Of a DNA stretch of 64,000 nt, positions 22,359-62,461 are shown one piece after another. Location of the stretch: NCBI GenBank assembly GCA_963667785.2, contig CAXXMU010000006.1:1024001-1088000 (forward strand), in the 5' to 3' direction. This DNA is from Alphaproteobacteria bacterium. Its GTDB lineage: Bacteria; Pseudomonadota; Alphaproteobacteria; UBA828. The notes below the pieces were generated by a model. It saw only the letters and a program-made list of their open reading frames with translations, had not been told where the DNA came from and ran no database searches. The position numbers were made by a program, and so were the translations under genes. Numbering within the stretch: the first letter of the stretch is position 1; every line of letters begins with the position of its first letter.

Positions 22359-22706
22359 TCAGTCGGCGGTCCCCGCCGGTGCGGCGCGGCGCAGCGCGGC
22401 GAGCAGTGCCGGATCCAGGGGGTCGAGCGGGCGCCCGGCGATCTCCTCGGCCGCGGCCCAGACCTGGGGCAGGTGCGCCACCAGGGTCGTGCGGCCGGCG
22501 TGGCTCCGCACCACATACTGATTGTTGGCCCAGTCCGACGCCTGGCAGCCATAGTGATCGAGGATCCGGTTGACCAGCGAGACGCGGCGCAGCCGGCCGA
22601 GATAGCGCTCGCGCCCGCTCTCGGGCTCGGCCGTGCGGCCGGCGTCGGTGCCGGCCTCTGTCCAGTGCACGCTGCCGTCGGCCATCATCGAGCAGAACGC
22701 GCACAC
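22359..22706 (-). CDS. Small hypothetical protein with N-terminal CxxC...HW
   Basis: GTG start after GGGGAG; C-terminal LDPLDP; follows the C45 gene. Confidence 0.65.
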   Translation of the reverse strand: MCAFCSMMADGSVHWTEAGTDAGRTAEPESGRERYLGRLRRVSLVNRILDHYGCQASDWANNQYVVRSHAGRTTLVAHLPQVWAAAEEIAGRPLDPLDPALLAALRRAAPAGTAD

Positions 22707-22736
22707 GACGCCGTCTCCCCGGCCCCGCCGGCCTGC

Positions 22737-47101: not shown

Positions 47102-49156
47102 ATGAATGACGTGTCGAGGGTGGCCGTTCGGGTCGCGTGCGATGTCGGCGGAACGTTTACCGACGTGTGCGTTCTGGACCAGGAGACCGGCCAGATGCGC
47201 GTCGCCAAGACGCCGACGACGCCCGACCCGATCGACGGCGTGCTCAACGGCATCGAGGCCGGCGGGGTGGACCTCCGCGACATGGTGCTCTTCGCCCACG
47301 GCACCACGCTCGCCACCAACGCGCTGATCACGCGCAACTTCCCGCCGGCCATCATGGTGACCACGAAGGGCTTCCGCGACGTGATCGAGATCCGGCGCGG
47401 CACCCGCGACGATCTGTGGGACACCTACAAGGAGATGGCGCCGCCTTACATCAAGCGCCGCGACCGGCTGGTCGTCACCGAGCGCATCGACTACAGCGGC
47501 GCCATCATCGAGCCGGTGAACGAGGCCGAGGCCCGCGAGGCCGCCCGCATCATCAACAAGCGGGGCGTGAAGACCATCGCCGTCTGCTTCGCCAACGCCT
47601 TCGCCAACCCCGAGAACGAGCGGCGGATGCGCGACATCCTCGAGGAAGAGGTGCCGGGCGCCTCGATCTCGCTCTCGAGCGAGATCATGCCCGAGATCTT
47701 CGAGCACGAGCGCTTCTCGACGACGGTGGCGAACGCGGTGCTGGCGCCGGTCGCCGGAGAGTATGTGGGTCGGCTCGCCACGCGGCTCCGCGAAGGCGGC
47801 TACGAGGAGGACATCCTGCTGCTGCATTCCGGCGGCGGGGTGATGACCGAGAGCACGGCGTCCAAGTTCGCGGCCAGGCTCGCCGCCTCGGGCATCGCGG
47901 CGGGCGCCATCGCGAGCCGCTTCGTCGCCCAGCTCGCGGGCTACGAGAACTCGATCAGCCTCGACATGGGCGGTACCAGCACCGACGTCTCGCTCTGCGA
48001 CCGGGGCAACCTCAGGGTGACCACCGACTGGTACGTGCAGTACGGCTATCCCATCTGCTTCCCCAGCATCGAGGTGCTGACCATCGGCGCCGGCGGCGGC
48101 TCGCTCGCCTGGATCGACGAGGCGAACTCGCTCCGCAACGGGCCGCAGTCGGCCGGGTCCTCTCCGGGGCCGGCCTGCTACGGGCGGGGCGGCGTGGAGC
48201 CCACCAACTCCGACGCCAACATCGTCCTCGGGCGCATCAGCGACCGGCTCGCGGGCGGCGCCGTCACGCTCGATCGCGCGCTCGCCGAGGAGGCCATCAA
48301 GCGCCGCGTCGCCGACCCGCTCGGGCTCTCGGTGCAGGAGGCCGCGGTCTCGATCCTCCAGGTGGCGAACGCCAACATGGCCGACGCCGTGCGCCTGGTC
48401 TCGATCCGGCGCGGCTACGACCCGCGCGACTTTGCGTTGACCGTGTTCGGCGGGGCCGGCCCGCTGCACGGTGTGGCGCTGGCCCGTGACCTCTCGATCC
48501 CGACCGTGCTGGTGCCGCCGAACCCGGGCGTCACGTCTGCGCTCGGCTGCCTGCTGGTCGACATCAAGCACGACATGTCGCAGATGTACCTGCGCTCTAC
48601 CGAAGACGCGAAGATCGAGGAGATCGAGCAGACCTTCAGCGCGCTCGAGGACGAGGGCCGCCAGCGGCTCCTGCACGAGGGCGTGACCGAGGATCGCATG
48701 CAGTTCGAGCGCTTCGTCGACATGCGCTATCTCGGCCAGTGGCGCTCCATGTCGATCAAGGTGGACGCGAGCGCGGGCTCGCTCGATGCGGCGATCGCCC
48801 AGTTCCACGAGGAGCACGGCCGCGAGCACAACTATTCGAGGCCCGACGCGCCGGTCGAGATCTACCGCCTCACCGTCACCGCCACCGGCCTCTCGCAGAA
48901 GGCGGAGTTCGCCAAGGAGGAGATGGACCGCTCGGCGCCGAGCCCGGCAAGCCGGCGGCCGGTCGTCTTCGACGAAGAGCCGACGCCGATCGACACCCCG
49001 ATCTACGACCGCGATACGCTGCACGCAGGTGCGGTGATCGAAGGGCCGGCGATCATCGAGCAGCTGGATTCCACGGTGCTGGTGCCGCCCGGCCTCAAGG
49101 CCGAGGTCGACCCCTGGCACACCATCGTCATGCACATTCCGCAGGCCGAAGGCTGA
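47102..49156 (+). CDS. Hydantoinase A/oxoprolinase family, ATP-binding subunit
   Basis: DVGGTFTD, HGTTLATN, DMGGTSTD, GAGGGS, FGGAGPLH. Confidence 0.93.
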   Translation: MNDVSRVAVRVACDVGGTFTDVCVLDQETGQMRVAKTPTTPDPIDGVLNGIEAGGVDLRDMVLFAHGTTLATNALITRNFPPAIMVTTKGFRDVIEIRRGTRDDLWDTYKEMAPPYIKRRDRLVVTERIDYSGAIIEPVNEAEAREAARIINKRGVKTIAVCFANAFANPENERRMRDILEEEVPGASISLSSEIMPEIFEHERFSTTVANAVLAPVAGEYVGRLATRLREGGYEEDILLLHSGGGVMTESTASKFAARLAASGIAAGAIASRFVAQLAGYENSISLDMGGTSTDVSLCDRGNLRVTTDWYVQYGYPICFPSIEVLTIGAGGGSLAWIDEANSLRNGPQSAGSSPGPACYGRGGVEPTNSDANIVLGRISDRLAGGAVTLDRALAEEAIKRRVADPLGLSVQEAAVSILQVANANMADAVRLVSIRRGYDPRDFALTVFGGAGPLHGVALARDLSIPTVLVPPNPGVTSALGCLLVDIKHDMSQMYLRSTEDAKIEEIEQTFSALEDEGRQRLLHEGVTEDRMQFERFVDMRYLGQWRSMSIKVDASAGSLDAAIAQFHEEHGREHNYSRPDAPVEIYRLTVTATGLSQKAEFAKEEMDRSAPSPASRRPVVFDEEPTPIDTPIYDRDTLHAGAVIEGPAIIEQLDSTVLVPPGLKAEVDPWHTIVMHIPQAEG

Positions 49157-49178
49157 CGCAGAGAGCGAGGAAGAAGAG

Positions 49179-51194
49179 ATGAGCAAGAACGGTGAAGGCT
49201 ACACGCTCGACCCCGTGACCTTCGAGGTGCTCAAGAACGCCTACGTCAACATCGTCGACCAGATGGCCGAGCAGATCTTCCGCACCTGCTACTCCTTCGT
49301 CATCTGGTCGCGGGATTTCTCGTCCGCCATCTGCGACACCGAGGGCAACACGATCATGCAGGGCTCGGGCGACATCGCCGCCCACGTGGGCACGCTGCAC
49401 TACACGGCCCAGGCCGTCATCAACAAGTTCGGCGACGACATCCACCCCGGCGATACCTTCGTCGTCAACGACGTCTACCAGGGCGGCACCCACTTCAACG
49501 ACACGCGCATCGTCCGCCCCATCTTCTACAAGGGCATTCATCTGGGCTTCTCGCAGGCCAACGGCCACTGGGCCGATGTGGGCGGCGCGGTGCCGGGCTC
49601 GTTCAATGTCAGCGCGCTCGACCACATGGCCGAGGGGCTGCGCATCACGCCGGTCCGCGTCTACAGCAAGGGCGAATACCTCTCCGACGTGGCCGAGCTG
49701 ATCGCCAACAACACCCGCGCGCCGGCCGACATCATCGGCGACCTGCAGGCCCAGGCCGAGGCCTGCAACGTGGCCGAGCGGGAGATCGGCCGGCTCTGCG
49801 ACAAGTACGGCGTCGACGTGATCCAGACCTCCTTCGCCGAGGTACAGGACTATGTGGAGACGCTCACCCGTCAGCGCATCGCCAGGCTGCCTGACGGCGT
49901 CTGGGAGACGGAGGACTATATCGACGTGGACCCGGTCGCCGGCGAGGGGCTGATCCCGATCCGCATCAAGATGACCATCGACGGCGACGGCGTGCACTAC
50001 GACCTCTCCGGCTCGCACCCGAAGACGATCTCGACCTTCCTCAACTGCTGCTACGGCGGCGCGTTCGCGGCGATCGTCGCCGGCACCAAGATGCAGTCGC
50101 CCGACATCCCGCTGAACTCCGGCTTCTACCGCGTCGTCACCGTCGATCTCGGGCCGAAGGGGACCGTGGTCAACGCCGACTGGCCGACGCCTGTCGCGGG
50201 CTTCTGCTCGGGCCCGTTCGAGAAGATCATGAACTCGGTATTCGAACTCTGGGCCGAGATCCTGCCCGAGCGCGCCATGGCGTGCACCTTCAACCTCGAA
50301 TACCTGCTGATCGGCGGCCGCGACGGCCGCAAGGAGGATCGCCCCTACTTCATGTGGTACGACTGGATGGTCGGCGGCTGGGGCGCCCGCAACGGCCGCG
50401 ACGGCTGGGGCGCGACGGGGCCGGTCTTCGGCGTCCAGCTCGGCACCCAGCCCTTCGAGGGGCAGGAGCGGCTGGCCCCGGTGCTGACCACGGGCCACGA
50501 GCTCATCGTCGATTCCGGCGGTCCCGGCAACTCGCGGGGCGGCCTCGGCGTCGAGAAGGGCGCGATCCTGACCAAGGCGGAACGCTCCGTGGTCTCCTAC
50601 TGCTGCGACCGCGAGCGTTCGGTGACCTGGGGGCTGTGGGGCGGCCTGCCCTCGATCCCGCACGGGGTCTGGGTCAATCCGGGCACCCAGGGCGAGCGCT
50701 ATCTGGGCTCGATCTTCTCGGGCGTGCCGGTGGAGGCGGGCGACACCGTGACGCGGCCGTCCGCCGGCGGCGGCGGTCTCGGCGACCCGCTCACCCGCGA
50801 GCCTGCGACGGTGTGCGAGGACGTGGCGGACGGCTACGTCTCCATCGAGCGGGCGCGGAAGGACTACGGCGTCGTGGTCCGCGAGATCGACGCCGACCTC
50901 GCCGAATACGAGGTCGACGAGGCGGCGACCGAGGCCGAGCGCGAGCGCATCCGCACCCAGCGCCACGCCTGGCTCGACGTGGACGCCGAGGACATTGCGG
51001 CCAAGTACCGCAGCAAGGAGCTGGACGCGCTCGACCTGATCCGGCAGTACGGCGTGATCGTCGACTGGGGCACTGGCGAGCTCCTGCCCACCACCACCCG
51101 GCAGTTCCGCGACATGCTGCGCCGCCGCACCGCGGCCCACTGGGAGGTGCCGGGCCAGGCCCGCAACGAGCAGCCGACGCTCCGCGTCGCCTGA
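49179..51194 (+). CDS. Hydantoinase B/oxoprolinase family subunit
   Basis: RDFSSAI, NDVYQGGTHFND, HWADVGG, DSGGPG, GGGGLGDP. Confidence 0.93.
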   Translation: MSKNGEGYTLDPVTFEVLKNAYVNIVDQMAEQIFRTCYSFVIWSRDFSSAICDTEGNTIMQGSGDIAAHVGTLHYTAQAVINKFGDDIHPGDTFVVNDVYQGGTHFNDTRIVRPIFYKGIHLGFSQANGHWADVGGAVPGSFNVSALDHMAEGLRITPVRVYSKGEYLSDVAELIANNTRAPADIIGDLQAQAEACNVAEREIGRLCDKYGVDVIQTSFAEVQDYVETLTRQRIARLPDGVWETEDYIDVDPVAGEGLIPIRIKMTIDGDGVHYDLSGSHPKTISTFLNCCYGGAFAAIVAGTKMQSPDIPLNSGFYRVVTVDLGPKGTVVNADWPTPVAGFCSGPFEKIMNSVFELWAEILPERAMACTFNLEYLLIGGRDGRKEDRPYFMWYDWMVGGWGARNGRDGWGATGPVFGVQLGTQPFEGQERLAPVLTTGHELIVDSGGPGNSRGGLGVEKGAILTKAERSVVSYCCDRERSVTWGLWGGLPSIPHGVWVNPGTQGERYLGSIFSGVPVEAGDTVTRPSAGGGGLGDPLTREPATVCEDVADGYVSIERARKDYGVVVREIDADLAEYEVDEAATEAERERIRTQRHAWLDVDAEDIAAKYRSKELDALDLIRQYGVIVDWGTGELLPTTTRQFRDMLRRRTAAHWEVPGQARNEQPTLRVA

Positions 51195-51211: not shown

Positions 51212-51904
51212 GTGCGCACCGTCCTGGTCACGGGTGCCGACCGCGGCATCGGCCACGCGCTCTGCCGCGCCTGTCACGCGCGCGGCGATACGGTCGTCGC
51301 GGCCTGCCTGGATGATTCGGAGGAACTAAGGGCGCTCGACATCCGGGTCGAGCCCGGCATCGACGTGACCTCCGACGACGCGGTGCGGAGCTTGGCCGAG
51401 AGCCTCACGCGCACCGGCACGACGCTCGACGTTCTCATCAACAATGCCGGGATCGCCGGCCCCGACCATGTATTGGGCGCGCTCGACTACGACGACATCC
51501 GCCGGCAGATCGAGGTGAACGCGCTCGGGCCCCTTCGCGTGACCGAGGCCTTGCTGGAGCGGCTCAAGCCGGGATCGACGGTCGCCTTCATCACCAGCCG
51601 CATCGGCTCGCTCGGCGACAACCACTCGGGCGGGCTCTACGGCTACCGCATCTCCAAGTGCGCCGCCAACATGGTCGCGGTCAACCTCGCCCACGATCTG
51701 GCGACGCGCGGCATCGGCGCGGTAGTGCTGCACCCCGGCATGGTGGCGACCGCCATGACCTTCGACGACGAGCGCGCAGAGGCGCGGCCGCCGGAGGAAG
51801 CCGCCGCCGCGCTGATCGAGCGGATCGAGCGGGCCGGCCAGGCGGAGCCGGGCGCGCCGCCCGCCTTCTGGCACGCGCCCGAGCGCACGATCATCCCGTG
51901 GTGA
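51212..51904 (+). CDS. SDR, CsgA/C-factor-like
   Basis: TGADRGIG, INNAG, YRISK, LHPGMVAT. Confidence 0.88.
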   Translation: MRTVLVTGADRGIGHALCRACHARGDTVVAACLDDSEELRALDIRVEPGIDVTSDDAVRSLAESLTRTGTTLDVLINNAGIAGPDHVLGALDYDDIRRQIEVNALGPLRVTEALLERLKPGSTVAFITSRIGSLGDNHSGGLYGYRISKCAANMVAVNLAHDLATRGIGAVVLHPGMVATAMTFDDERAEARPPEEAAAALIERIERAGQAEPGAPPAFWHAPERTIIPW

Positions 51905-51944
51905 CGACCTTGCGCTAAGCGCGCACCGCGATTTCGGAGACGAA

Positions 51945-52052
51945 CCCCCACTTCACCCCGCCCCTCTCCGCCCCCAGGGGCAGAGAGGGAGAGCACGCTG
52001 TTGCAATCGCGTTCCCCCTCCGCCTTCGGGGGAGGGGGACAGGGGGAGGTGG
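51945..52052. repeat. Double-hairpin palindromic intergenic element (REP/RPE-like)
   Basis: CCCTCTCCGCCCCC/GGGGCAGAGAGGG and TCCCCCTCC/GGAGGGGGA hairpins, enclosed by CCACTTC...GGAGGTGG. Confidence 0.7.
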
Positions 52053-52091
52053 AGTGTGTCGTATGTGCGCGACGCTGGATGCGCACGCTAC

Positions 52092-53081
52092 CTAGGCGTC
52101 CAGGCCGAGGCTCCGGTGGAAGGCCTCGACCGCGCCGATGGCGGCATCCGCCGCGTCGTCCTGCTCCGGCAGGGCATCGCAGTAGGTGGCGACCGCTTGC
52201 TGCGCGAGCGGCATCCACTTCCCGATCCAGCCCCGGATCACGTCGGCATTGCCCTCCTGCTCCAGTGAGAACGCGACGAGGGCGGCGCTCCAGCGGCGCG
52301 AGCGCTCGCTGTCCCGCATCTGGTTGTCGGCGAGCAGGCCGAGGAGCCCGTCGTCGGAGCGACGCGCGACACGGCCGAGCTGCCGGTGCGCCTCGTCGGC
52401 GGCCGGCTTCGCCACCAGATTGAGCGCGACGAAGTGCTCGCCCCAGTCGTAGGTGGCGAGCGTCTTCTCCAGGAGCTCGCGGAAGCCCTGCCAGGCGGGC
52501 GCCGATTCCCAGGTCTGCCGCTCCGTCTCCCCGAACCCGCGCGCAGGGTGCGCGCGCTGGAGCTCGCGCGCCCGATAGGCGCAGCGGGAGAGCCAGCGGA
52601 ACTCGTCGCCGTCCTGGAAGCCGGCGCAGGCCGTCACCGTGCTGGCCGGCGCGATCTGCACCAGGTAGGCCGCGCCCATCTGCAGCGCCATCTGCAGGAA
52701 GCGCCGGGGCGTGTAGAGCCGCTCCAGCACGTCGAGCCAGGCGGCAGACAGCGTCCCGTCGTGGCCGATCTCGTCGTGCTCGTCGAGCAGGCCGTCGACG
52801 TACTGCTCCTGCTGATCCTGGATCCGCGTGTAGACGCGGTAGATCATCTCGTCCGGGTCGCGAAAGCCCTCCCAGTCCGGGTGCTGCAGCGGGCTTTCCG
52901 AGACGTGACGCTTGTAGAACTCGTTCATGCCCAAGAGCGGCGCGGGCGAGAGCTCGTAGGCCTGGTCGGGATGGCGCGTGCGGGTCTGCAGGTTGGTGGT
53001 GACGACCTCGTACTCGCTCGGCCGCCGCCGCTTCCTGGCGAGGCCGCTCCACGTCTTCATGCCTTTGACTTCGACCGTCAC
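52092..53081 (-). CDS. Soluble di-iron monooxygenase hydroxylase beta subunit (TmoE/IsoE-like)
   Basis: KTWSGL...RPSEYEVV, FRDPDEMIYRVY, WQGFRELLEK, DWGE. Confidence 0.92.
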   Translation of the reverse strand: MTVEVKGMKTWSGLARKRRRPSEYEVVTTNLQTRTRHPDQAYELSPAPLLGMNEFYKRHVSESPLQHPDWEGFRDPDEMIYRVYTRIQDQQEQYVDGLLDEHDEIGHDGTLSAAWLDVLERLYTPRRFLQMALQMGAAYLVQIAPASTVTACAGFQDGDEFRWLSRCAYRARELQRAHPARGFGETERQTWESAPAWQGFRELLEKTLATYDWGEHFVALNLVAKPAADEAHRQLGRVARRSDDGLLGLLADNQMRDSERSRRWSAALVAFSLEQEGNADVIRGWIGKWMPLAQQAVATYCDALPEQDDAADAAIGAVEAFHRSLGLDA

Positions 53082-53170
53082 GGTACTGCTCCCTAGTGTC
53101 CTGCTTTGAAGTTAATTCCCACTCAGTCGGGCTCGTGAGCGATCCCTCCAACTGCGGTTTTCTTACACAT

Positions 53171-53260
53171 CGTCATGCCCGGACTCGTTCCGGGCATCCA
53201 CGTTCTTTGCCCCCGCTGCACGAAAACTCGTGGATGGCCGGGACAAGCCCGGCCATGACG
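53171..53260. repeat. Palindromic intergenic element (alphaproteobacterial RIME/RPE-like)
   Basis: CGTCATGCCCGGACTCGTTCCGGGCATCCACG...CGTGGATGGCCGGGACAAGCCCGGCCATGACG. Confidence 0.8.
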
Positions 53261-53304
53261 AGTTGGGGGCGGCGCACAAGGATGGAGACTTCCGGAACGG
53301 GTCA

Positions 53305-53598
53305 CTAGCGCGCGACGAACCGGATGCCGTCCGGCTCGGTGCGGATGAACCCTGCGAAGCTCGGCATGTTCGCCTCGATGTCGCCGCGGGTGACGGTGCG
53401 GCCCAGCACGTCGCCCACCGTCTCGAAGCGCACGAAGCACTCGTCCGCGACCTTGATGCGGACATAGGACGCGTGCGCCTCGGTGATGACCTCGCGCCCC
53501 TCGCTCTCCTCCTGGATCGCCTCGAGCACCGCGTCCGCGATCTCGCCCGCGCGCATCACGGGGCCCACGAGGTTGCCGGCGTCGTCTGCCGTCGTCAT
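53305..53598 (-). CDS. Monooxygenase effector/coupling protein (TmoD/MmoB/DmpM family)
   Basis: VGPVMRAG, SYVRI, MPSFAGFI; GGAGGAG RBS. Confidence 0.92.
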   Translation of the reverse strand: MTTADDAGNLVGPVMRAGEIADAVLEAIQEESEGREVITEAHASYVRIKVADECFVRFETVGDVLGRTVTRGDIEANMPSFAGFIRTEPDGIRFVAR

Positions 53599-53629: not shown

Positions 53630-53890
53630 TCAGCCGGCGCGGTAGATTTCGACGGACTCCATCTCGACGAAGCCCGCATCCGCGATGGTGAGCCCATCCG
53701 GCAGTGCCTCGTCGCTGCCCTGGAGACGCACCTTGAGGATCGCGTCGGACGGGAAGGGCGCCACCAGGACGCCCGCGACCTGGTCCGCCACCTTCCCCGC
53801 CAGCTCCGCCATGGTGTCGCCGGTATCGAAGACCTGCACCTTGTAGCCGTAGTCGCCCTCGAGCAGGACGGCGAGCGGAATGTCGGCCAT
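53630..53890 (-). CDS. Monooxygenase hydroxylase gamma subunit (TmoB-like)
   Basis: IPL...EGD, DTMAELA, TIADAG; 86 aa, directly after the alpha subunit. Confidence 0.88.
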   Translation of the reverse strand: MADIPLAVLLEGDYGYKVQVFDTGDTMAELAGKVADQVAGVLVAPFPSDAILKVRLQGSDEALPDGLTIADAGFVEMESVEIYRAG

Positions 53891-53905: not shown

Positions 53906-55426
53906 CTACTCGGCGGCCGCCGCGCGCGGCGCGTCGTAGCCGTCGATCCACTGATAGTCGTAGCCGCAGACGCCGCGCTCCTCGAAGCTCTGGCCCATGT
54001 ACTCGTAGAAGCCGTCGGGGCCCGGCGGCACGGTGCCGTCCAGCACCCGGTCGATGATGCTGCGATGCCCCTGGTAGCGGGCGGGCTCCAGCTCGAAGAC
54101 CCACTTGCAGGGCTCGGAGCAGAAGTGATAGCGCCGGCCCCCGTGGTCGAGGTGGAAGTCGGTGGCGTTCCAGCGCCGGCCGTTCACCTGCCGGCCCACG
54201 CCCGCGATCCCGGTCACCTCCAGCCCGCACATGTTGCAGATGAGCGGCGGAACCTCCGGCACCGTCTTCTCGAAGCGGCCCTGGCGGATATTGTCGATCA
54301 CCACGTCCCAGCACTTGCCGTAGGTGTCGTTCCAGCCCGGATACTTCTCCTCCAGCCAGTCGCGCTCGGCGGGCGAGACGCAGGCGATCGGCCGCCACCA
54401 CTCGGTCGCGCGGTAGACGTAGACGCCGATCTGCTGCGAGTGGTGGAAGGTCTCGATGTCGTGGAGGAAGTAATCCCAGTACCACGGCAGATCGAGGCCC
54501 AAAGCCTTGATGTTGCGGGCGAACTGATCGACCACCCATTCGTGCATGAACTCCTTGAGCGAATGCTCGCGGAACTCCAGCGGCGTGTAGTAGTCCATGG
54601 AGATGCCGCTCAAGGCGGAGAACTGCTTCCAGATGCGCCAGAAGCCGATGTCGACGAGCTGCTGCGCCTCCGCCTTGCGCCCGTTCTCGATCATGATGCT
54701 GATGAGCGGCGTGCCGATCTGCGCGTGCCGGGCCTCGTCGGTCTGGATGCTCTGCAGCATGGTGGCGAAGGTGTGGTCGCCCGCCTTCGCCGCGTCCGCC
54801 GAGAGGCCGATGAACTGCAGGTTGGTAAAGCCCTGCTCGAAGGCGAAGTTGGTCATGATCGCGGCGCTGATCGCATCGCGCGTGTGCTCGATGTCGTCGA
54901 GCGCATGGCGCAGGCTGATGATGATCCAGTTCTCGGTCTTGGACGACTTGTGCGCCCAGTCGAAGACGCGGTCGTGCTTGATGAACTCGTAGGCGAAATA
55001 CATCTGGATCTGGCCGTGACGCATTTCGTCGAGGGTGCCGAAGGTCGCCATGTTGCGCATGCCCGGCGCACGGCTGAAGCGGGTCATCCGGGCGAAGGCG
55101 GATGCCGAGTGGAACTCGGCGAAGCCGATGGGGCTGAAATGCAGCGCGAGCAGCGCCTTCCAGTGCGGCGAGGCGTTCTTGAAGAAGTCCGCCCGCGCGA
55201 GCGCGGACTTCACCGAATAGGCGCCGATGTCCTTGTCGCGCTGGGTCTCGACATAGTCCCGGTAGCAGACCTTGTAGGGCTCGTCGAAGGTCTCCCACTG
55301 CTCGACCGAAATCCCGAAGGGATCGCTGAACTCGGGCGGGAAGAGCTCTTCCTCGGCGACGTAGGCGGGAGTCCAGTTGGTATCCCGCGTGAGGTCGTAC
55401 CATTCGTGCATATCGAGCAGCGCCAT
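53906..55426 (-). CDS. Soluble di-iron monooxygenase hydroxylase alpha subunit (TmoA/IsoA group)
   Basis: WYDLTRDTNW; di-iron ligands E104, E134-x-x-H137, E197, E231-x-x-H234; T201-N202; WLEEKYPGW; C-terminal YHS-like domain. Confidence 0.95.
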   Translation of the reverse strand: MALLDMHEWYDLTRDTNWTPAYVAEEELFPPEFSDPFGISVEQWETFDEPYKVCYRDYVETQRDKDIGAYSVKSALARADFFKNASPHWKALLALHFSPIGFAEFHSASAFARMTRFSRAPGMRNMATFGTLDEMRHGQIQMYFAYEFIKHDRVFDWAHKSSKTENWIIISLRHALDDIEHTRDAISAAIMTNFAFEQGFTNLQFIGLSADAAKAGDHTFATMLQSIQTDEARHAQIGTPLISIMIENGRKAEAQQLVDIGFWRIWKQFSALSGISMDYYTPLEFREHSLKEFMHEWVVDQFARNIKALGLDLPWYWDYFLHDIETFHHSQQIGVYVYRATEWWRPIACVSPAERDWLEEKYPGWNDTYGKCWDVVIDNIRQGRFEKTVPEVPPLICNMCGLEVTGIAGVGRQVNGRRWNATDFHLDHGGRRYHFCSEPCKWVFELEPARYQGHRSIIDRVLDGTVPPGPDGFYEYMGQSFEERGVCGYDYQWIDGYDAPRAAAAE

Positions 55427-55496: not shown

Positions 55497-56543
55497 TTAC
55501 CCGCCGAGCGCGTCCTTGAAGATCGAGCAGTCGATCCCCACTGCGGGATCGACCGTCTCGGTCATCAGGCCGAAGGTCAACCACCACTTGTTGGTGAGCT
55601 CCCAGTGGTCGGTGAGCTGGCCGTTGCGCTGGCCGAAGGGCGGCTCGCCCTCGGCAACGCCGCAGAACTGCGCCGATTCCTCCAGACTATACATGTAGAG
55701 AGTGCCGTCGTCGGGGTTGTTGAGGCCGCCGAGGATCGGCTCCACGTCCGCCACGCCCCACTGTAGCACCTCGGCGATCATCGCGTTGCCCTCCGTCGGG
55801 TTCGCGCGCCACCACTCGACCGCCGCGTAGCGGGCCTTCGTGAGCGCCACCAGCAGGTCGCGGTGCTCCGCGACGAAGGCGTCGGAGACGAAGATGGCGT
55901 CCGCGATCAGGCCCTCCTTGAGCCAGTACTCCTCGCCCGAATGGCTCATCTCGCGCGAGCCGGGGAGCTCTTCCAGCACCTGCGGGCCGTAGGGGTCCCA
56001 GAGCTCGGCGGCCGAGAGCTGGCCCGCGATCATCGCTGCGGCGGCGGCATCCGGGAAGAGGTTCACCATCTCCACCTCGTCCCACTTGATGCCCTGCTGC
56101 TCGAGCCAGATCGCCATGTAGATCTGCGACAGCCCGCCCTCGATGACGCCGACCTGCTTGCCCTTGAGGTCCTCGGGAGAGGCGATGTCGGGGCCCACGA
56201 TGATGCGGTCCGATCCGTTGCCGAGATTGGTGAGGCCGAGCAGCTTCACCGGCATGTCCTCGGCGAGCGCGATGGGGCCGAACTCGATGGTGCTGGTCAC
56301 GATGTCGAGCTGGCCGCTCGCGAGCAGGCCCATGCTCTGCACCGGGTCCTCGATGATCGAGATCTCGAGGTCGACGTTCTCCGGCAGCATCCCTTTCGCC
56401 TTGGCGATGTGGAGGAAGCCGTAGCCCGGCCAGCTGAAGTGCGCGACCCTGACGGTCTCCTTGGCGCTGGCCGCGCCGGCGATGCCGAGCGCGAGCGCGC
56501 AGGCAGCCAGTGTCATGATGGATGTTCGCCACAGCATGGTCAT
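55497..56543 (-). CDS. NitT/TauT-family ABC substrate-binding protein
   Basis: Signal peptide; WPGY, EDLKGKQVG, WDPY. Confidence 0.88.
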   Translation of the reverse strand: MTMLWRTSIMTLAACALALGIAGAASAKETVRVAHFSWPGYGFLHIAKAKGMLPENVDLEISIIEDPVQSMGLLASGQLDIVTSTIEFGPIALAEDMPVKLLGLTNLGNGSDRIIVGPDIASPEDLKGKQVGVIEGGLSQIYMAIWLEQQGIKWDEVEMVNLFPDAAAAAMIAGQLSAAELWDPYGPQVLEELPGSREMSHSGEEYWLKEGLIADAIFVSDAFVAEHRDLLVALTKARYAAVEWWRANPTEGNAMIAEVLQWGVADVEPILGGLNNPDDGTLYMYSLEESAQFCGVAEGEPPFGQRNGQLTDHWELTNKWWLTFGLMTETVDPAVGIDCSIFKDALGG

Positions 56544-56580: not shown

Positions 56581-57429
56581 CTAGCTGACCCGCCCCCTGA
56601 TCTCCTCGCGCATCATCGCGTAGAGCCGCCGCTCCATGTCCACGTAACCCGGATGCACGAGCATCTCCTCCTTCTTCTGGAAGCGGCGGCCTTCCTTGAA
56701 CGCCATGGGGAGGTCGGCTTTGATTCGCCCCGGCTGGCGGGTGTAGAAGATGATCCGGTCGGCGAGGTAGATCGCCTCCTGGATGTCGTGGGTGACCACC
56801 ACCACCGTCTTGTTCTCGCGCTCGATGATCTCGATTATCATCTCCTCCATCTCCCAGGTGACCTGGGCGTCGAGCGCGCCGAAGGGCTCGTCCAGCAGCA
56901 GCAGCGCCGGATTCTGCGCCAGCGTGCGCGCGATGGAGACGCGCTGCTTCATGCCGCCGGAAAGCTCGGCCGGATAGGCGTTGGCGAACCCCTCCAGATG
57001 AACGAGCTCGAGGAAGTGCTCGGCGCGCGCGCGCCGCTCGGCCTTCGCGAGCCCCTGGAGCTTCAGACCGTATTCGATGTTGGCCCGCGTCGTGAGCCAG
57101 GGGAAGGAGGTATAGGCCTGGAACACCATGCCGCGCTCGGGTCCCGGCCCCGGGATCGGCCGGCCGAACATGGTCACGTCGCCCAGCGAGGGGTATTCGA
57201 GCCCCGCCATCAGCCTGAGCATCGTCGTCTTGCCGCAGCCGGACGGGCCGATCATCGCCGTCACCTGATTGGCATGGACGTCGAAGGAGACATCGTCGAG
57301 GGCGATCACGCTGCCGTTCAGGTAGCTCTTGGTGACCCGGTTGGCGCGGAGCGGCGGCGTCCCCGGCAGAGGGGCGTCGACACCCGTCTGCGCCTGCGTC
57401 GCCTTTCGCCCGAGACCCAGGATCGCCAT
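56581..57429 (-). CDS. NitT/TauT-family ABC ATP-binding protein
   Basis: GPSGCGKT, VFQAYTSFPW, LSGGMKQR, DEPFGALD, VTHD. Confidence 0.93.
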   Translation of the reverse strand: MAILGLGRKATQAQTGVDAPLPGTPPLRANRVTKSYLNGSVIALDDVSFDVHANQVTAMIGPSGCGKTTMLRLMAGLEYPSLGDVTMFGRPIPGPGPERGMVFQAYTSFPWLTTRANIEYGLKLQGLAKAERRARAEHFLELVHLEGFANAYPAELSGGMKQRVSIARTLAQNPALLLLDEPFGALDAQVTWEMEEMIIEIIERENKTVVVVTHDIQEAIYLADRIIFYTRQPGRIKADLPMAFKEGRRFQKKEEMLVHPGYVDMERRLYAMMREEIRGRVS

Positions 57430-57440
57430 CCCGCCCCCTC

Positions 57441-58322
57441 CTAGCGCCTGACCCGCAGGTAGGGGAAGAGGATGCGGCTGGCGACGCGGAACGAGATGTC
57501 GGTCAGCACGCCGAGCACACCGATGGTAAGGATGCCGCCCATCATGATGTCGACGTGGAGGAAGCGGGCAGCCCGCATCATCACCGCGCCGATGCCGTCG
57601 GTCGCCACGATGATCTCGGCGATCACCAGGTAGGTCCAGGCGACGGCGATCATGTTGCGCATGGAATCGAGGATGGCGGGCGCCGCGGCGCGGAAGGTGA
57701 TGCCCACCACCTGCCGCCGCTTGGCCCCCATGGTGAGACCGGACTCGACCAGCTCGCGCTGGACCGCGAGCGTGTTGTCGAGGATCAGCGCGACGAGAAA
57801 GAAGAAGCAGCCGAGGAAGAGCAGCGCCATCTTGGCGAAGTCGGTCGGCCCGAACCACACCAGCAGCAGCGGCGCGAAGGAGGCCGCCGGCAGATAGCGC
57901 CAGCCCCCTGTGGTCGGGCTGATGAGCGCGCGCGCCTTGACGAAGCAGCCCATGAAGACGCCGAGCGGCACGGCGATCAGGCTGGCGACGAAGAAGCTCG
58001 CATAGATGCGGTAGAGGCTGGTGCCGACATCGGCGATGAAGTTCTTCTCGGCGAAGAGATAGGCGATCTCGGCCACCACCTGCTCGACGGCAGGCAGAAA
58101 GCGTTGCTTCTCCGCCGGCGTCGCGTAGTGGGCGACCTCCCAGACGGCGAAGAAGATGATGACGCCGAGCACTCCCAGCACCACGGTGCGCCGCTGGGTG
58201 AGGGAGCCCAGCACCTCCAGGAAGGGCTGACGCGGCGGCTTGAAGACGGGCGCGAGGGCGGCCTCGCCCGGTTGCGAATTCGCATCGGACGGCGGCGTGC
58301 CCCCGGCGTGCCCCTGCGCCAT
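57441..58322 (-). CDS. NitT/TauT-family ABC permease
   Basis: RYLPAASFAPLL, AWTYLVIAE, DGIG. Confidence 0.9.
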   Translation of the reverse strand: MAQGHAGGTPPSDANSQPGEAALAPVFKPPRQPFLEVLGSLTQRRTVVLGVLGVIIFFAVWEVAHYATPAEKQRFLPAVEQVVAEIAYLFAEKNFIADVGTSLYRIYASFFVASLIAVPLGVFMGCFVKARALISPTTGGWRYLPAASFAPLLLVWFGPTDFAKMALLFLGCFFFLVALILDNTLAVQRELVESGLTMGAKRRQVVGITFRAAAPAILDSMRNMIAVAWTYLVIAEIIVATDGIGAVMMRAARFLHVDIMMGGILTIGVLGVLTDISFRVASRILFPYLRVRR

Positions 58323-58371: not shown

Positions 58372-59607
<1,236 letters not shown>

Positions 59608-59630: not shown

Positions 59631-60305
59631 TTACGCGCCCGGCGCCGGCCGCCGGCGGCCGCCGCGCCCGGCCGCCTTTCCGCGGCCGTTTCCTGCGCCC
59701 AGCGGCTTGTCCCACTTGAAGAGGCTCTTGTAGAGGCCGAGCCCCATCATCGGCTCGACCTGGGCGATGTCGTCCGAGCCGTAGCAGTGGGAATCGAGAA
59801 AGTCGCGCAGCTCGTCGGGCGAGCCGCACACCACCTCGGCCAGCAGGTCGAAGCGCGCGGCGACGCGCATGACGTAGACGACCTCGGGCCGGTCGCGGAA
59901 GTGGGACGCCACCTCATGGGCGCTCGCGCCGCGGGCGACCTTGATGCCGAGCATCGACCAGGCCGTGTAGCCCAGCGCCAGCGGGTTCACCACGGTGATG
60001 AAGTGAATCAGGTTGGCCCGGTGCATCTGGCCCACGCGGGAGCGCACGGTCCCTTCCGAGACGCCGAGCGTCCGCGCGATGGTGGAGAACGGCATGCGGC
60101 CGTCCTCCTGCAAGAGCGCCACGATCTCCCGGTTCAGCCCCTCGATGGGAGGAGCCGAGGTATACGCGACCGCGTCGTCCTGCAGGTCGGCCATGCCTAT
60201 CTGGCGCAGGCCCATGATCGGCGCGGGCTCCGCGTCGGCCGGCGCTCGCCGCCCTGCCCCTTCGCCGTTCCCCCCGGTCTTCGAGGATGCCTTCGAGGGG
60301 CTCAT
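59631..60305 (-). CDS. Lrp/AsnC-family transcriptional regulator
   Basis: LQEDGRMPFSTIARTLGVSEGTVRSRV HTH, RFDLLAEV; GGAGG RBS. Confidence 0.9.
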   Translation of the reverse strand: MSPSKASSKTGGNGEGAGRRAPADAEPAPIMGLRQIGMADLQDDAVAYTSAPPIEGLNREIVALLQEDGRMPFSTIARTLGVSEGTVRSRVGQMHRANLIHFITVVNPLALGYTAWSMLGIKVARGASAHEVASHFRDRPEVVYVMRVAARFDLLAEVVCGSPDELRDFLDSHCYGSDDIAQVEPMMGLGLYKSLFKWDKPLGAGNGRGKAAGRGGRRRPAPGA

Positions 60306-60492: not shown

Positions 60493-61422
60493 ATGACGCT
60501 CAAGCTGATCGACAACCCGGTGCCGTGGCCGGACGGAGCCCGCTGCGCCGTGGCCATCACCTTCGACATCGACACCGACAGCATCCTGCACCTCGATTTC
60601 CCCGACAAGGCGGAGAACATGCTCTCGGCCAACTCGTTCCTCAGGTACGACGAGGTGGCGATCCCGCGGATCCTGAAGGTCTACGCCCATTACGGCATCA
60701 AGCAGACCTTCTTCTATCCGGCCTGGTGCATGGAGCGGTACCCGCACCTCGTGGACGCGATCCTGGAGGGCGGGCACGAGATCGCAGCCCACGGCTACCT
60801 CCACGAGAACCCCAACGACGAATCGCGCGAGCGGCAGGAATACTGGCTGGACCGGCAGATCGAGGTGATCAAGCGCATGACCGGGCGGGCGCCGCGCGGC
60901 TGGCGCGCGCCGCTCTACAACGCGTCGAAGCACTCGCCGGCGCTGCTCGCCGAGCGCGGCATGCTCTACGACGCGAGCCTGATGGGCGACGACGTCCCCT
61001 GCGTGCTGCAGACGCCCGCCGGCGAGGTCATCTGCCTGCCCTCGCACTGGGGCATGGACGACTGGCCGCACTACATGCACAGCCTCGACTTCCACTACAC
61101 CATGACCATCAAGTCGCCGGACGAGGCCATGCGGGTCTTCGATTCCGAGTTCGAGGCTATGTACGAGAACGGCGGCATGCTCGTCACCGTCTGGCATCCC
61201 TTCGTCTCCGGCCGGCTCGCCCGGATGCGCCGCGTGGCGGCGTGGATCGAGGCGCTGCAGAAGCGGGGCGGCGTCTGGTTCGCGACGATGGAGGAGATCG
61301 CCGCCCACGTGCGCGCCTGCATCGACGACGGCTCCTGGACGCCGCGCACGGAGCGGATGCCCTACTACGACGGGCGGATTCCGGAGTGGGAGCCGCAGGA
61401 GACCGCCGCCGCCGCAGAGTAG
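60493..61422 (+). CDS. Polysaccharide deacetylase (NodB-like) small-molecule amidohydrolase
   Basis: WPDGARCAVAITFDID, HEIAAHGYLHE, GWRAP, DDWP, WHP. Confidence 0.88.
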   Translation: MTLKLIDNPVPWPDGARCAVAITFDIDTDSILHLDFPDKAENMLSANSFLRYDEVAIPRILKVYAHYGIKQTFFYPAWCMERYPHLVDAILEGGHEIAAHGYLHENPNDESRERQEYWLDRQIEVIKRMTGRAPRGWRAPLYNASKHSPALLAERGMLYDASLMGDDVPCVLQTPAGEVICLPSHWGMDDWPHYMHSLDFHYTMTIKSPDEAMRVFDSEFEAMYENGGMLVTVWHPFVSGRLARMRRVAAWIEALQKRGGVWFATMEEIAAHVRACIDDGSWTPRTERMPYYDGRIPEWEPQETAAAAE

Positions 61423-61471: not shown

Positions 61472-62461
61472 TCAGAGCGCGGGGATCAGGCGCTCCTTCG
61501 GGTACTCGGCACCGACCACGTGCTGGATCGTCACCGCGCGCACCATCTGGTAGGTGCGGATGCGGAAGGCCGGGTCGCACGACATGCGGATGTACATGTC
61601 CTTGCCGCTGATGCCGTAATCGTCCCGCAGCCACTGCATCATGTTGTCGCAGGCGTCGTAGACCGCGTGCTCCATGGGCAGGTTGATGCCGACGGCGACG
61701 AGGCTGTCGGGCTTCTCGATCCGCACGCAGGGCGCGTGCTTGTTCTTGATGACCGTCGCGCTCAGCTCGATCGTCGCCCGCGTCTCGTCGGCGATGCCGG
61801 TGAACTCGGTGTCCCCCTGGCCGCCGTGCATGTCGCCCACGTAGAGCAGGCCGCCGTCGTGATAGGCGTTGAGATAGATCGTGTGGCCGGCGCGCACGTC
61901 GCGGCAGTCGATGTTGCCGCCGAAGGGGCCCTGGCCCAGCAGCGAGGTGAAGACCTCGCGCTCCGGCGCGCACGCGAGCGTGCCGCAGAAGGGCATCAGG
62001 TCCCAGGTGAGCTTGTCCGAGTACTTGCCCGTGCCGTCCCGCGTGTGGCCGCTCGGGCCGGGGAAGTGCTCGATCACCTGCACATGCGCCTCGGAGCACT
62101 CCGCCCAGCGCTTCGAATCCCCTAGCGGCCCGATGCCCGGCAGGATGCCGGAGAAGCCGTAGCGCCAGGGATCGATCGAATCGATATGGACCGCGAGCGT
62201 GTCGCCGCGCGCGCAGCCCTCGACGTAGATCGGCCCCACCACTGGGTTGTACTTGGGCGGCCAGACGCTCTGCAGGGACACGACGTGCTCGCCGGTGAAA
62301 TCGTGCACCAGCGGGTCGTCGCTGTCGTCGGCGATCAGGCCCGAGAGCGCGTCGTCGGTCTCCAGCCGGAAGACTTCTCCCTGGGCCACGCGCAGGATCG
62401 GCTCGTCCTCCCAGTCGAAGGCGTACTTGCTGGGCACCTCGCCCCGCCTGATCGTCTGCAT
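61472..62461 (-). CDS. Acetamidase/formamidase family protein
   Basis: NPVVGPIYVEG, GGNIDC, GDMHGGQGDTE. Confidence 0.9.
   Translation of the reverse strand: MQTIRRGEVPSKYAFDWEDEPILRVAQGEVFRLETDDALSGLIADDSDDPLVHDFTGEHVVSLQSVWPPKYNPVVGPIYVEGCARGDTLAVHIDSIDPWRYGFSGILPGIGPLGDSKRWAECSEAHVQVIEHFPGPSGHTRDGTGKYSDKLTWDLMPFCGTLACAPEREVFTSLLGQGPFGGNIDCRDVRAGHTIYLNAYHDGGLLYVGDMHGGQGDTEFTGIADETRATIELSATVIKNKHAPCVRIEKPDSLVAVGINLPMEHAVYDACDNMMQWLRDDYGISGKDMYIRMSCDPAFRIRTYQMVRAVTIQHVVGAEYPKERLIPAL

Follow-up and report, generated by a model that had tools for sequence, protein, structure and literature searches.

A glutamate in the predicted substrate pocket of a toluene-type diiron monooxygenase, and the Rid and hydrolase genes that accompany it

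Introduction

The window analysed here, a stretch of 64,000 nucleotides of alphaproteobacterial DNA, encodes the alpha subunit of a diiron hydroxylase with a glutamate at position 180, a site predicted to face the substrate pocket and normally greasy. This raises the question of what such an enzyme oxygenates, a hydrocarbon or a small nitrogen-containing compound. Group-1 enzymes often carry the database label "toluene monooxygenase", and most of them are uncharacterised and without a known substrate, according to the accessible part of PMC11825192. In the literature covered (mostly papers free of subscription, without their supplements), no description of the clade to which the window's enzyme belongs and no characterised member were found; Table S2/S3 of PMC11825192 might place members in a subgroup.

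Identity of the alpha subunit

The intact alpha reading frame runs from 55426 to 53906 on the minus strand, codons 100-205 lying at 54812-55129. The iron ligands E104, E134, H137, E197, E231 and H234 are all present, as are T201, N202 and Q228 at those numbers. The protein aligns without a gap to ToMO (1t0q) over residues 1-406, and alignment to 3dhg, 5tds and 5tdv places T4MO residues 96-210 one to one on the same residues here, so that the numbering holds and the colinearity with T4MO claimed in the first-pass annotation is confirmed. An alignment-based AlphaFold model (pLDDT 90.9; the single-sequence version, with pLDDT 34, was unusable) matches 1t0q with a TM score of 0.94 and an rmsd of 1.5 at 53% identity in the structural alignment, and T4MO with TM scores of 0.94-0.97 at 52% identity. 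Membership of group 1 calls for an alpha subunit that shares at least 35% identity with those of the group (PMC11825192, accessible part), and a TmoB-type gamma subunit, a coupling protein and a beta subunit were all found in the cluster. By sequence, fold and subunits, the enzyme is a group-1 (toluene-type) soluble diiron monooxygenase with a split operon. Among plasmid records, no alpha homologue above 56% identity was found.

The gene cluster and its electron supply

The features of the locus are collected in Table 1. The Lrp regulator, triple Rid protein, permease, ATPase, binding protein, alpha, gamma, effector and beta genes, in this order, are all on the minus strand and are separated by -4 to 223 bases.

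Table 1. Features of the oxygenase locus (positions in the window)
Feature	Position	Strand	Remark
Hydroxylase beta subunit	52092..53081	-	
Effector/coupling protein (MmoB/DmpM family)	53305..53598	-	
Gamma subunit (TmoB family)	53630..53890	-	
Diiron hydroxylase alpha subunit, 506 aa	53906..55426	-	six iron ligands and T201/N202/Q228; AlphaFold match to 1t0q
F196 codon	54839..54841	-	Leu only in the subclade without E180
T192 and N193 codons	54848..54853	-	polar, common in the wider family
E180 codon (GAG)	54887..54889	-	Met in ToMO; distinctive pocket residue
H106 and S107 codons	55106..55111	-	S107 clade-diagnostic
ABC substrate-binding protein, NMT1/THI5-SsuA type	55497..56543	-	
ABC transporter ATP-binding subunit	56581..57429	-	
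ABC transporter permease	57441..58322	-	
Single-chain triple Rid (YjgF/RutC-like) protein	58372..59607	-	without the canonical RidA arginine
Lrp/AsnC regulator	59631..60305	-	
CE4 hydrolase, HP0310/PuuE cyclic-imidase-like branch	60493..61422	+	divergently transcribed
Acetamidase/formamidase-family gene	61472..62461	-	cluster membership uncertain

The gaps on either side of beta (53082-53304 and 51902-52091) consist of dispersed repeats with about 40 and 49 matches in the genome; contigs of relatives in RNA libraries are without the repeat corresponding to 53082-53304. No riboswitch turned up when the window and 11 loci were scanned, and promoter and terminator scans gave results at chance level. 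Neighbour clustering found no acetamidase/formamidase-family gene in the other loci fetched. The hydantoinase/oxoprolinase pair at 47108-51194 was considered as a specific partner and rejected: it is not a general neighbour in the clade, and more than 30 such A/B pairs are present in the window's genome.

Neither a ferredoxin nor a reductase, which would complete a six-gene operon, is encoded in the window's cluster; other clade members keep one or both in theirs. Their absence lowers the standing of the cluster as a canonical operon, not that of the protein as one that works like a group-1 enzyme. In the window's genome, C8 encodes the single TmoC-like ferredoxin and C6 the TmoF-like reductase; electrons may be borrowed from these two proteins. 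A ferredoxin is found elsewhere in 13 of the 14 genomes whose cluster is without one. A second diiron monooxygenase, from another uncharacterised clade, is encoded in three places of the same genome (alpha, ferredoxin and effector at C8:9579-12072, beta at C2:32599-33564, reductase at C6:796390-797370); it may share these electron carriers with the window's enzyme. The missing genes might be taken to mean that the cluster is in decay, a remnant with no supply of electrons, but this is highly improbable: both carriers exist elsewhere in the genome, every frame and ligand in the cluster is intact, and relatives down to 81% identity share the layout. Two sponge RNA libraries also contain contigs that resemble the alpha gene at 94-96%; DNA carry-over is possible there, and these contigs weakly suggest expression in relatives.

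Residues of the substrate pocket

In the pocket region the alpha subunit has A103, H106, S107, F111, L176, E180, T192 and N193, all as read in the first-pass annotation; in the comparison made here, against ToMO, the same positions hold E103, A106, A107, E111, F176, M180, L192 and T193. For TmoA we take the corresponding letters to be G103, A107, F176, I180 and L192. Positions 107, 192 and 205 presumably line the cavity, and 106, 111 and 193 we assume not to be established cavity positions. In place of the apolar set of T4MO and ToMO (A107, F176, methionine or isoleucine at 180, and L192), S107, L176, E180 and T192 are found. Polar residues at 192 and 193 also occur in the Py2 plasmid enzyme of Xanthobacter (T192/S193) and in the Mycobacterium ELW1 enzyme (N192/S193).

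The available portion of PMC5812538 locates F188 and F192 of sMMO in the pocket, at its diiron end, and equates F188 with ToMO F176; the alignment being ungapped, sMMO F192 is then equivalent to position 180, which the same portion numbers Ile179 for T4MO. Titles in its reference list name M180, F176 and F196 of ToMO as catalysis or pocket residues, with M180 influencing catalysis. By homology to sMMO F192 and ToMO M180, E180 should thus face the pocket. ToMO I100 lies in the active site, with E103 and F176 at the edge of the cavity (PMC3962191, partial text), and because ToMO keeps this glutamate, an acid near the pocket does not on its own imply an amine substrate.

Distribution and loss of E180

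A set of 121 proteins together with the alpha subunits of 78 loci was assembled; after removal of rows shorter than 430 residues, distant second hits and near-duplicates at 98.5%, 184 rows were used for a quick IQ-TREE analysis, with SH-aLRT as the only support, a midpoint root, and ToMO and T4MO themselves outside the tree. The window's alpha subunit falls within a clade of 84 rows (SH-aLRT 100) that is separate from the ToMO-like rows; the genomes of this clade are sponge-associated, marine, freshwater and soil in origin. A second protein search, with a distant clade member as the query, brought no further members of the clade among the 120 best matches listed.

F111 is present in all 84 clade rows (4 of the 100 outside), S107 in 83 (5 outside) and N193 in 80 (20 outside). 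E180 is found in 52 of the 84, down to 59% pairwise identity, and outside the clade in 8 of 100 rows, all of them nearest outgroups, the site being otherwise M, L, F or I. Family-wide, among representatives at 50% identity, E180 occurs in 3 of the 75 that cover the position (one of these at a ragged end of the alignment) and S107 in 2 of 60, as against 18 of 72 for T192, only two of them with E180, and 26 of 72 for N193. E180 and S107, being rare, are therefore informative and T192 and N193, being frequent, are not. The suggestion that E180, T192 and S107 could bind an amine or a ring N-H accordingly survives in part: E180 and S107 nearly suffice to diagnose the clade together with its closest outgroups, T192 does not (nor does N193), and ToMO has its own acid in E103. 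A second acid, E172, on the same helix face, is present in 35 of the 52 E180 rows, in distant members (L012, L028, L034, L081-L083); the window's subclade has L172 together with H106 and L176.

The conservation expected of E180 and T192 also holds for only part of the clade, as 32 of the 84 rows are without both. These 32 group together in a single nested subclade (support 100), in which position 180 holds A, V, C, I or G and, in 31 of 32 rows each, L192 and L196 are found; the remaining 152 rows of the tree all have F196. On the branch where E180 disappears, eight columns conserved in the E180 rows have changed, three of them at pocket sites (180, 192 and 196), compared with 7 pocket sites among 226 eligible columns (p about 0.001, with a list of pocket sites that draws in part on general background). 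As reconstructed on this tree, E180 is lost once, jointly with T192L and F196L, and the joint change points to concerted remodelling of what would be a functional sub-site, in a single event. Cultured hosts exist for both the E180 and the non-E180 types, among them Zavarzinia aquatilis HR-AS (locus L028), which has a complete six-gene E180 cluster, and Rhodospirillaceae bacterium N.6G (L032) with a cluster of the non-E180 type.

E180 is combined with T192 in 48 of its 52 rows and with L192 in the other four. Covariation of the two was tried as independent evidence and rejected (sign test, p 0.25-1), since E180 changes state only three times on the tree.

Conserved gene neighbours

Among loci with at least 8 kb of flanking sequence, a triple Rid gene, a CE4 gene or both adjoin the oxygenase in 19 of 19 E180 clade loci (10 of which are the window and its relatives at 81% identity or more), in 16 of 16 non-E180 clade loci and in none of the 39 loci outside the clade. 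The E180 outgroup loci L056, L061 and L062 are without either gene. The clade's importers are of the NMT1/THI5 type or are NCS1 nucleobase permeases, and further neighbours in clade members are C-N hydrolases, namely an M20 deacylase, an amidase and a pair of ureohydrolases considered below. In distant members with E180, the additional genes are for CobW, an M20 deacylase, NCS1 permeases or an SRPBCC protein. No ring-cleavage genes of a catechol route and no 2,5-dihydroxypyridine dioxygenase were found among the annotated recurring neighbour families.

In the triple Rid protein the conserved arginine of the RidA family is absent, the PAR motif reading PAA, PAG or PVT in alignments to PDB entries and across 10 family members; imine hydrolysis by this protein is therefore not assured. 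Its match to RutC is weak (6e-22, below the cut-off). Compared with its counterparts at L023, L012 and L028, the triple Rid protein of the window's subclade (58372-59607; L009:8723-9958) differs in domain order, only two domains aligning and an extra N-terminal domain standing in place of the C-terminal one.

The CE4 gene product, in a profile search, is nearest to 3rxz, HP0310 and PuuE allantoinase, far ahead of polysaccharide deacetylases (E values of 7e-43 and 1e-22 for the HP0310/PuuE branch, 1e-12 or weaker for the deacetylases), and the Asp/His/His metal motif (D27, H100, H104) is invariant. Its score lies below the PuuE equivalog cut-off; by sequence, it is nevertheless assigned to the cyclic-imidase branch that holds HP0310, PuuE and HxnM. 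According to the accessible text of the two papers, HP0310 is without a polysaccharide groove (PMC3084791), and for HxnM, its fungal relative, the proposed role in nicotinate breakdown is the opening of a cyclic imide (PMC9304392).

Several further genes recur nearby. A small protein of no known family lies between CE4 and CobW genes (L028:16596-16919), with paralogues beside other CE4 genes in the window's genome (window 22362-22709; C1:1083176-1083502); atlas searches gave no further name for it or for the triple Rid protein. A PEP-utilising-domain protein (PRK08296 family) is encoded upstream of CE4 in close relatives (L001, L003, L004, L010, L033), and a PEP-synthase-like gene in a distant member (L012:5208-6839). 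Genes for formate-tetrahydrofolate ligase and an ammonium transporter lie directly upstream of some E180 enzymes (L061, L062, L011), hinting at formate and ammonia as products.

These neighbours bear directly on whether the enzyme is an ordinary hydrocarbon or alkene monooxygenase in which the polar residues are tolerated drift. Its identity to ToMO and the polar residues at 192 and 193 of alkene-type enzymes would fit this, as would an IsoH-like short-chain dehydrogenase gene (51218-51904, convergent with beta; 254 bits against a cut-off of 350). That gene is clustered only in the closest relatives, however, volatile hydrocarbons make a binding-protein importer unnecessary, and linkage to triple Rid or CE4 is seen at all 35 clade loci and at none of the 39 others, so that a hydrocarbon role is improbable.

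Proposed function

Because E180 occupies a normally greasy pocket site and predicted ring-opening hydrolases are always adjacent, the substrate is likely to be a small nitrogen-containing ring rather than a hydrocarbon. The reading that we favour, with a probability of about 0.55, is that the enzyme acts on an N-heteroaromatic compound, polar and taken up from outside, and oxygenates one of its ring carbons. The ABC system would import the compound, and E180 and S107, predicted to line the pocket, would hydrogen-bond the N-H of a small imidazole- or pyrimidine-like ring. The diiron centre would then oxygenate the ring carbon neighbouring the bound N-H, the hydroxylated ring would tautomerise to a lactam or imide for the CE4 enzyme to open, and an intermediate imine or enamine would be dealt with by the triple Rid protein. 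The part of E180 is probably to adjust which substrate is chosen, through the substituent accepted, rather than to define the pathway, which as such would not need it.

The pocket had been put forward as independent support for the hypothesis drawn from gene context, and in this it fails: 32 of the 84 clade rows keep the same neighbours without E180 and T192, so an acidic pocket is not required for that context. As the non-E180 subclade retains its triple Rid and CE4 neighbours, it is the gene context that carries the case for an N-heterocycle; that case rests mainly on the neighbours, and the pocket agrees with it.

It is possible, if on the unlikely side, that the substrate is instead an N/O heterocycle or a phenol, and that E180 is a structural or proton-relay acid, buried and probably protonated, which is hydrogen-bonded to T192/S107 or to a substrate hydroxyl and fills the space of M180 without binding an amine. 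Glutamate is close to methionine in length, 48 of the 52 E180 rows also have T192, E103 is tolerated at the cavity edge of ToMO with hydrocarbon substrates, and the pathway genes stay when apolar residues replace both E180 and T192. The four rows that combine E180 with L192 argue the other way, since they make E180 independent of T192, as does its retention down to 59% identity at a site that otherwise holds M, L, F or I.

Links to guanidine hydrolases

In 8 of 16 non-E180 clade loci the cluster includes a tandem ureohydrolase pair close to metformin/dimethylguanidine hydrolase (DmgH), with HypA/HypB. Genome-wide, at E values of 1e-40 or less, the pair is found in none of 19 E180 clade genomes, and it is present in 8 of 20 non-E180 clade genomes and in all three E180 outgroup genomes tested, many of the genomes being incomplete. 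The window's genome has no such pair, its best match being 30%. A simple rule by which DmgH is gained wherever E180 is lost does not hold, with the pair in only 8 of 20 non-E180 genomes and in 3 of 3 of the E180 outgroups. At the E180 outgroup locus L056 (6295-8683), a DmgH-like pair and a Rieske oxygenase lie directly upstream of the oxygenase, a second, separate link between oxygenase and guanidine hydrolase.

Such links would suit a substrate that is a non-aromatic amine, an amidine or a cyclic guanidine (creatinine-like). E180 would then pair with the cationic group, and hydroxylation by the diiron centre at the carbon adjoining nitrogen would give a hemiaminal, to be degraded by the Rid and CE4 proteins. 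Besides the pairs adjoining 8 of 16 non-E180 loci and L056, and found in 3 of 3 outgroup genomes, there is a precedent in methylguanidine, which undergoes hydroxylation followed by a dedicated lyase (PMC12508155, accessible part). We regard this as doubtful: none of the 19 E180 clade genomes has the pair, nor does the window's own, within the clade it goes with the pocket that has lost its acid, and group-1 enzymes mostly attack pi systems, cyclic ethers being the exception named in the accessible part of PMC11825192.

According to the accessible parts of PMC11399263 and PMC12508155, it is not known where dimethylguanidine comes from in nature. Returning to the N-heterocycle reading, one speculative extension, decidedly doubtful, is that the switch from E180/T192/F196 to A/L/L reflects a change from a heterocycle with N-H or NH2 to its N-methylated form. 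The clade would then be devoted to diiron-dependent breakdown of 2-amino-substituted rings (aminoimidazole, aminopyrimidine or guanine-derived); the window's enzyme would read the free amino edge, and its apolar sister would take the dimethylamino form and free N,N-dimethylguanidine.

Whatever the exact substrate, the clade seems made for recovering nitrogen from polar ring compounds, and if so, inferences of hydrocarbon degradation drawn from its members would be wrong. E180/T192/F196 and A/L/L constitute a natural pair, ready-made for mutagenesis, and a diiron enzyme with an acidic anchor would be useful for regioselective oxidation of N-heterocycles.

Comparison with known systems

The closest comparison is with ToMO TouA of Pseudomonas sp. 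OX1 (1t0q), which shares the fold, the numbering, the iron ligands, T201/N202/Q228, I100, F196 and F205, and from which the window's enzyme differs by E103A, A107S, E111F, F176L, M180E, L192T and T193N, as well as by an operon without ferredoxin or reductase and with ABC importer, triple Rid and CE4 neighbours. T4MO TmoA of Pseudomonas mendocina KR1 (3dhg/5tdt) is colinear over 96-210 and has the same alpha-gamma-effector-beta order, its six-gene operon being reduced to four genes in the window. Judged by pocket and branch, the window's enzyme is predicted not to be a functional orthologue of either. The alkene and dioxane enzymes (plasmid hydroxylases of Xanthobacter Py2, of the IsoA type in Mycobacterium ELW1, and of Xanthobacter YN2) share the group-1 architecture, but at 39-47% identity and with M or F at 180 and A at 107.

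A diiron precedent on an N-heteroaromatic exists in HpdABCDE, the 2-hydroxypyridine 5-monooxygenase of Burkholderia sp. MAK1 (PMC8313251, accessible part), which is likened to the present system by the type of substrate proposed here. The logic of an oxygenase, a C-N hydrolase and a Rid protein is that of the Rut pyrimidine pathway (RutA/RutB/RutC) and of the fungal HxnM route, the window's CE4 gene product being related to the HxnM/HP0310 branch; in contrast to these, the window has a diiron rather than a flavin oxygenase, and a fused triple Rid protein without the catalytic arginine.
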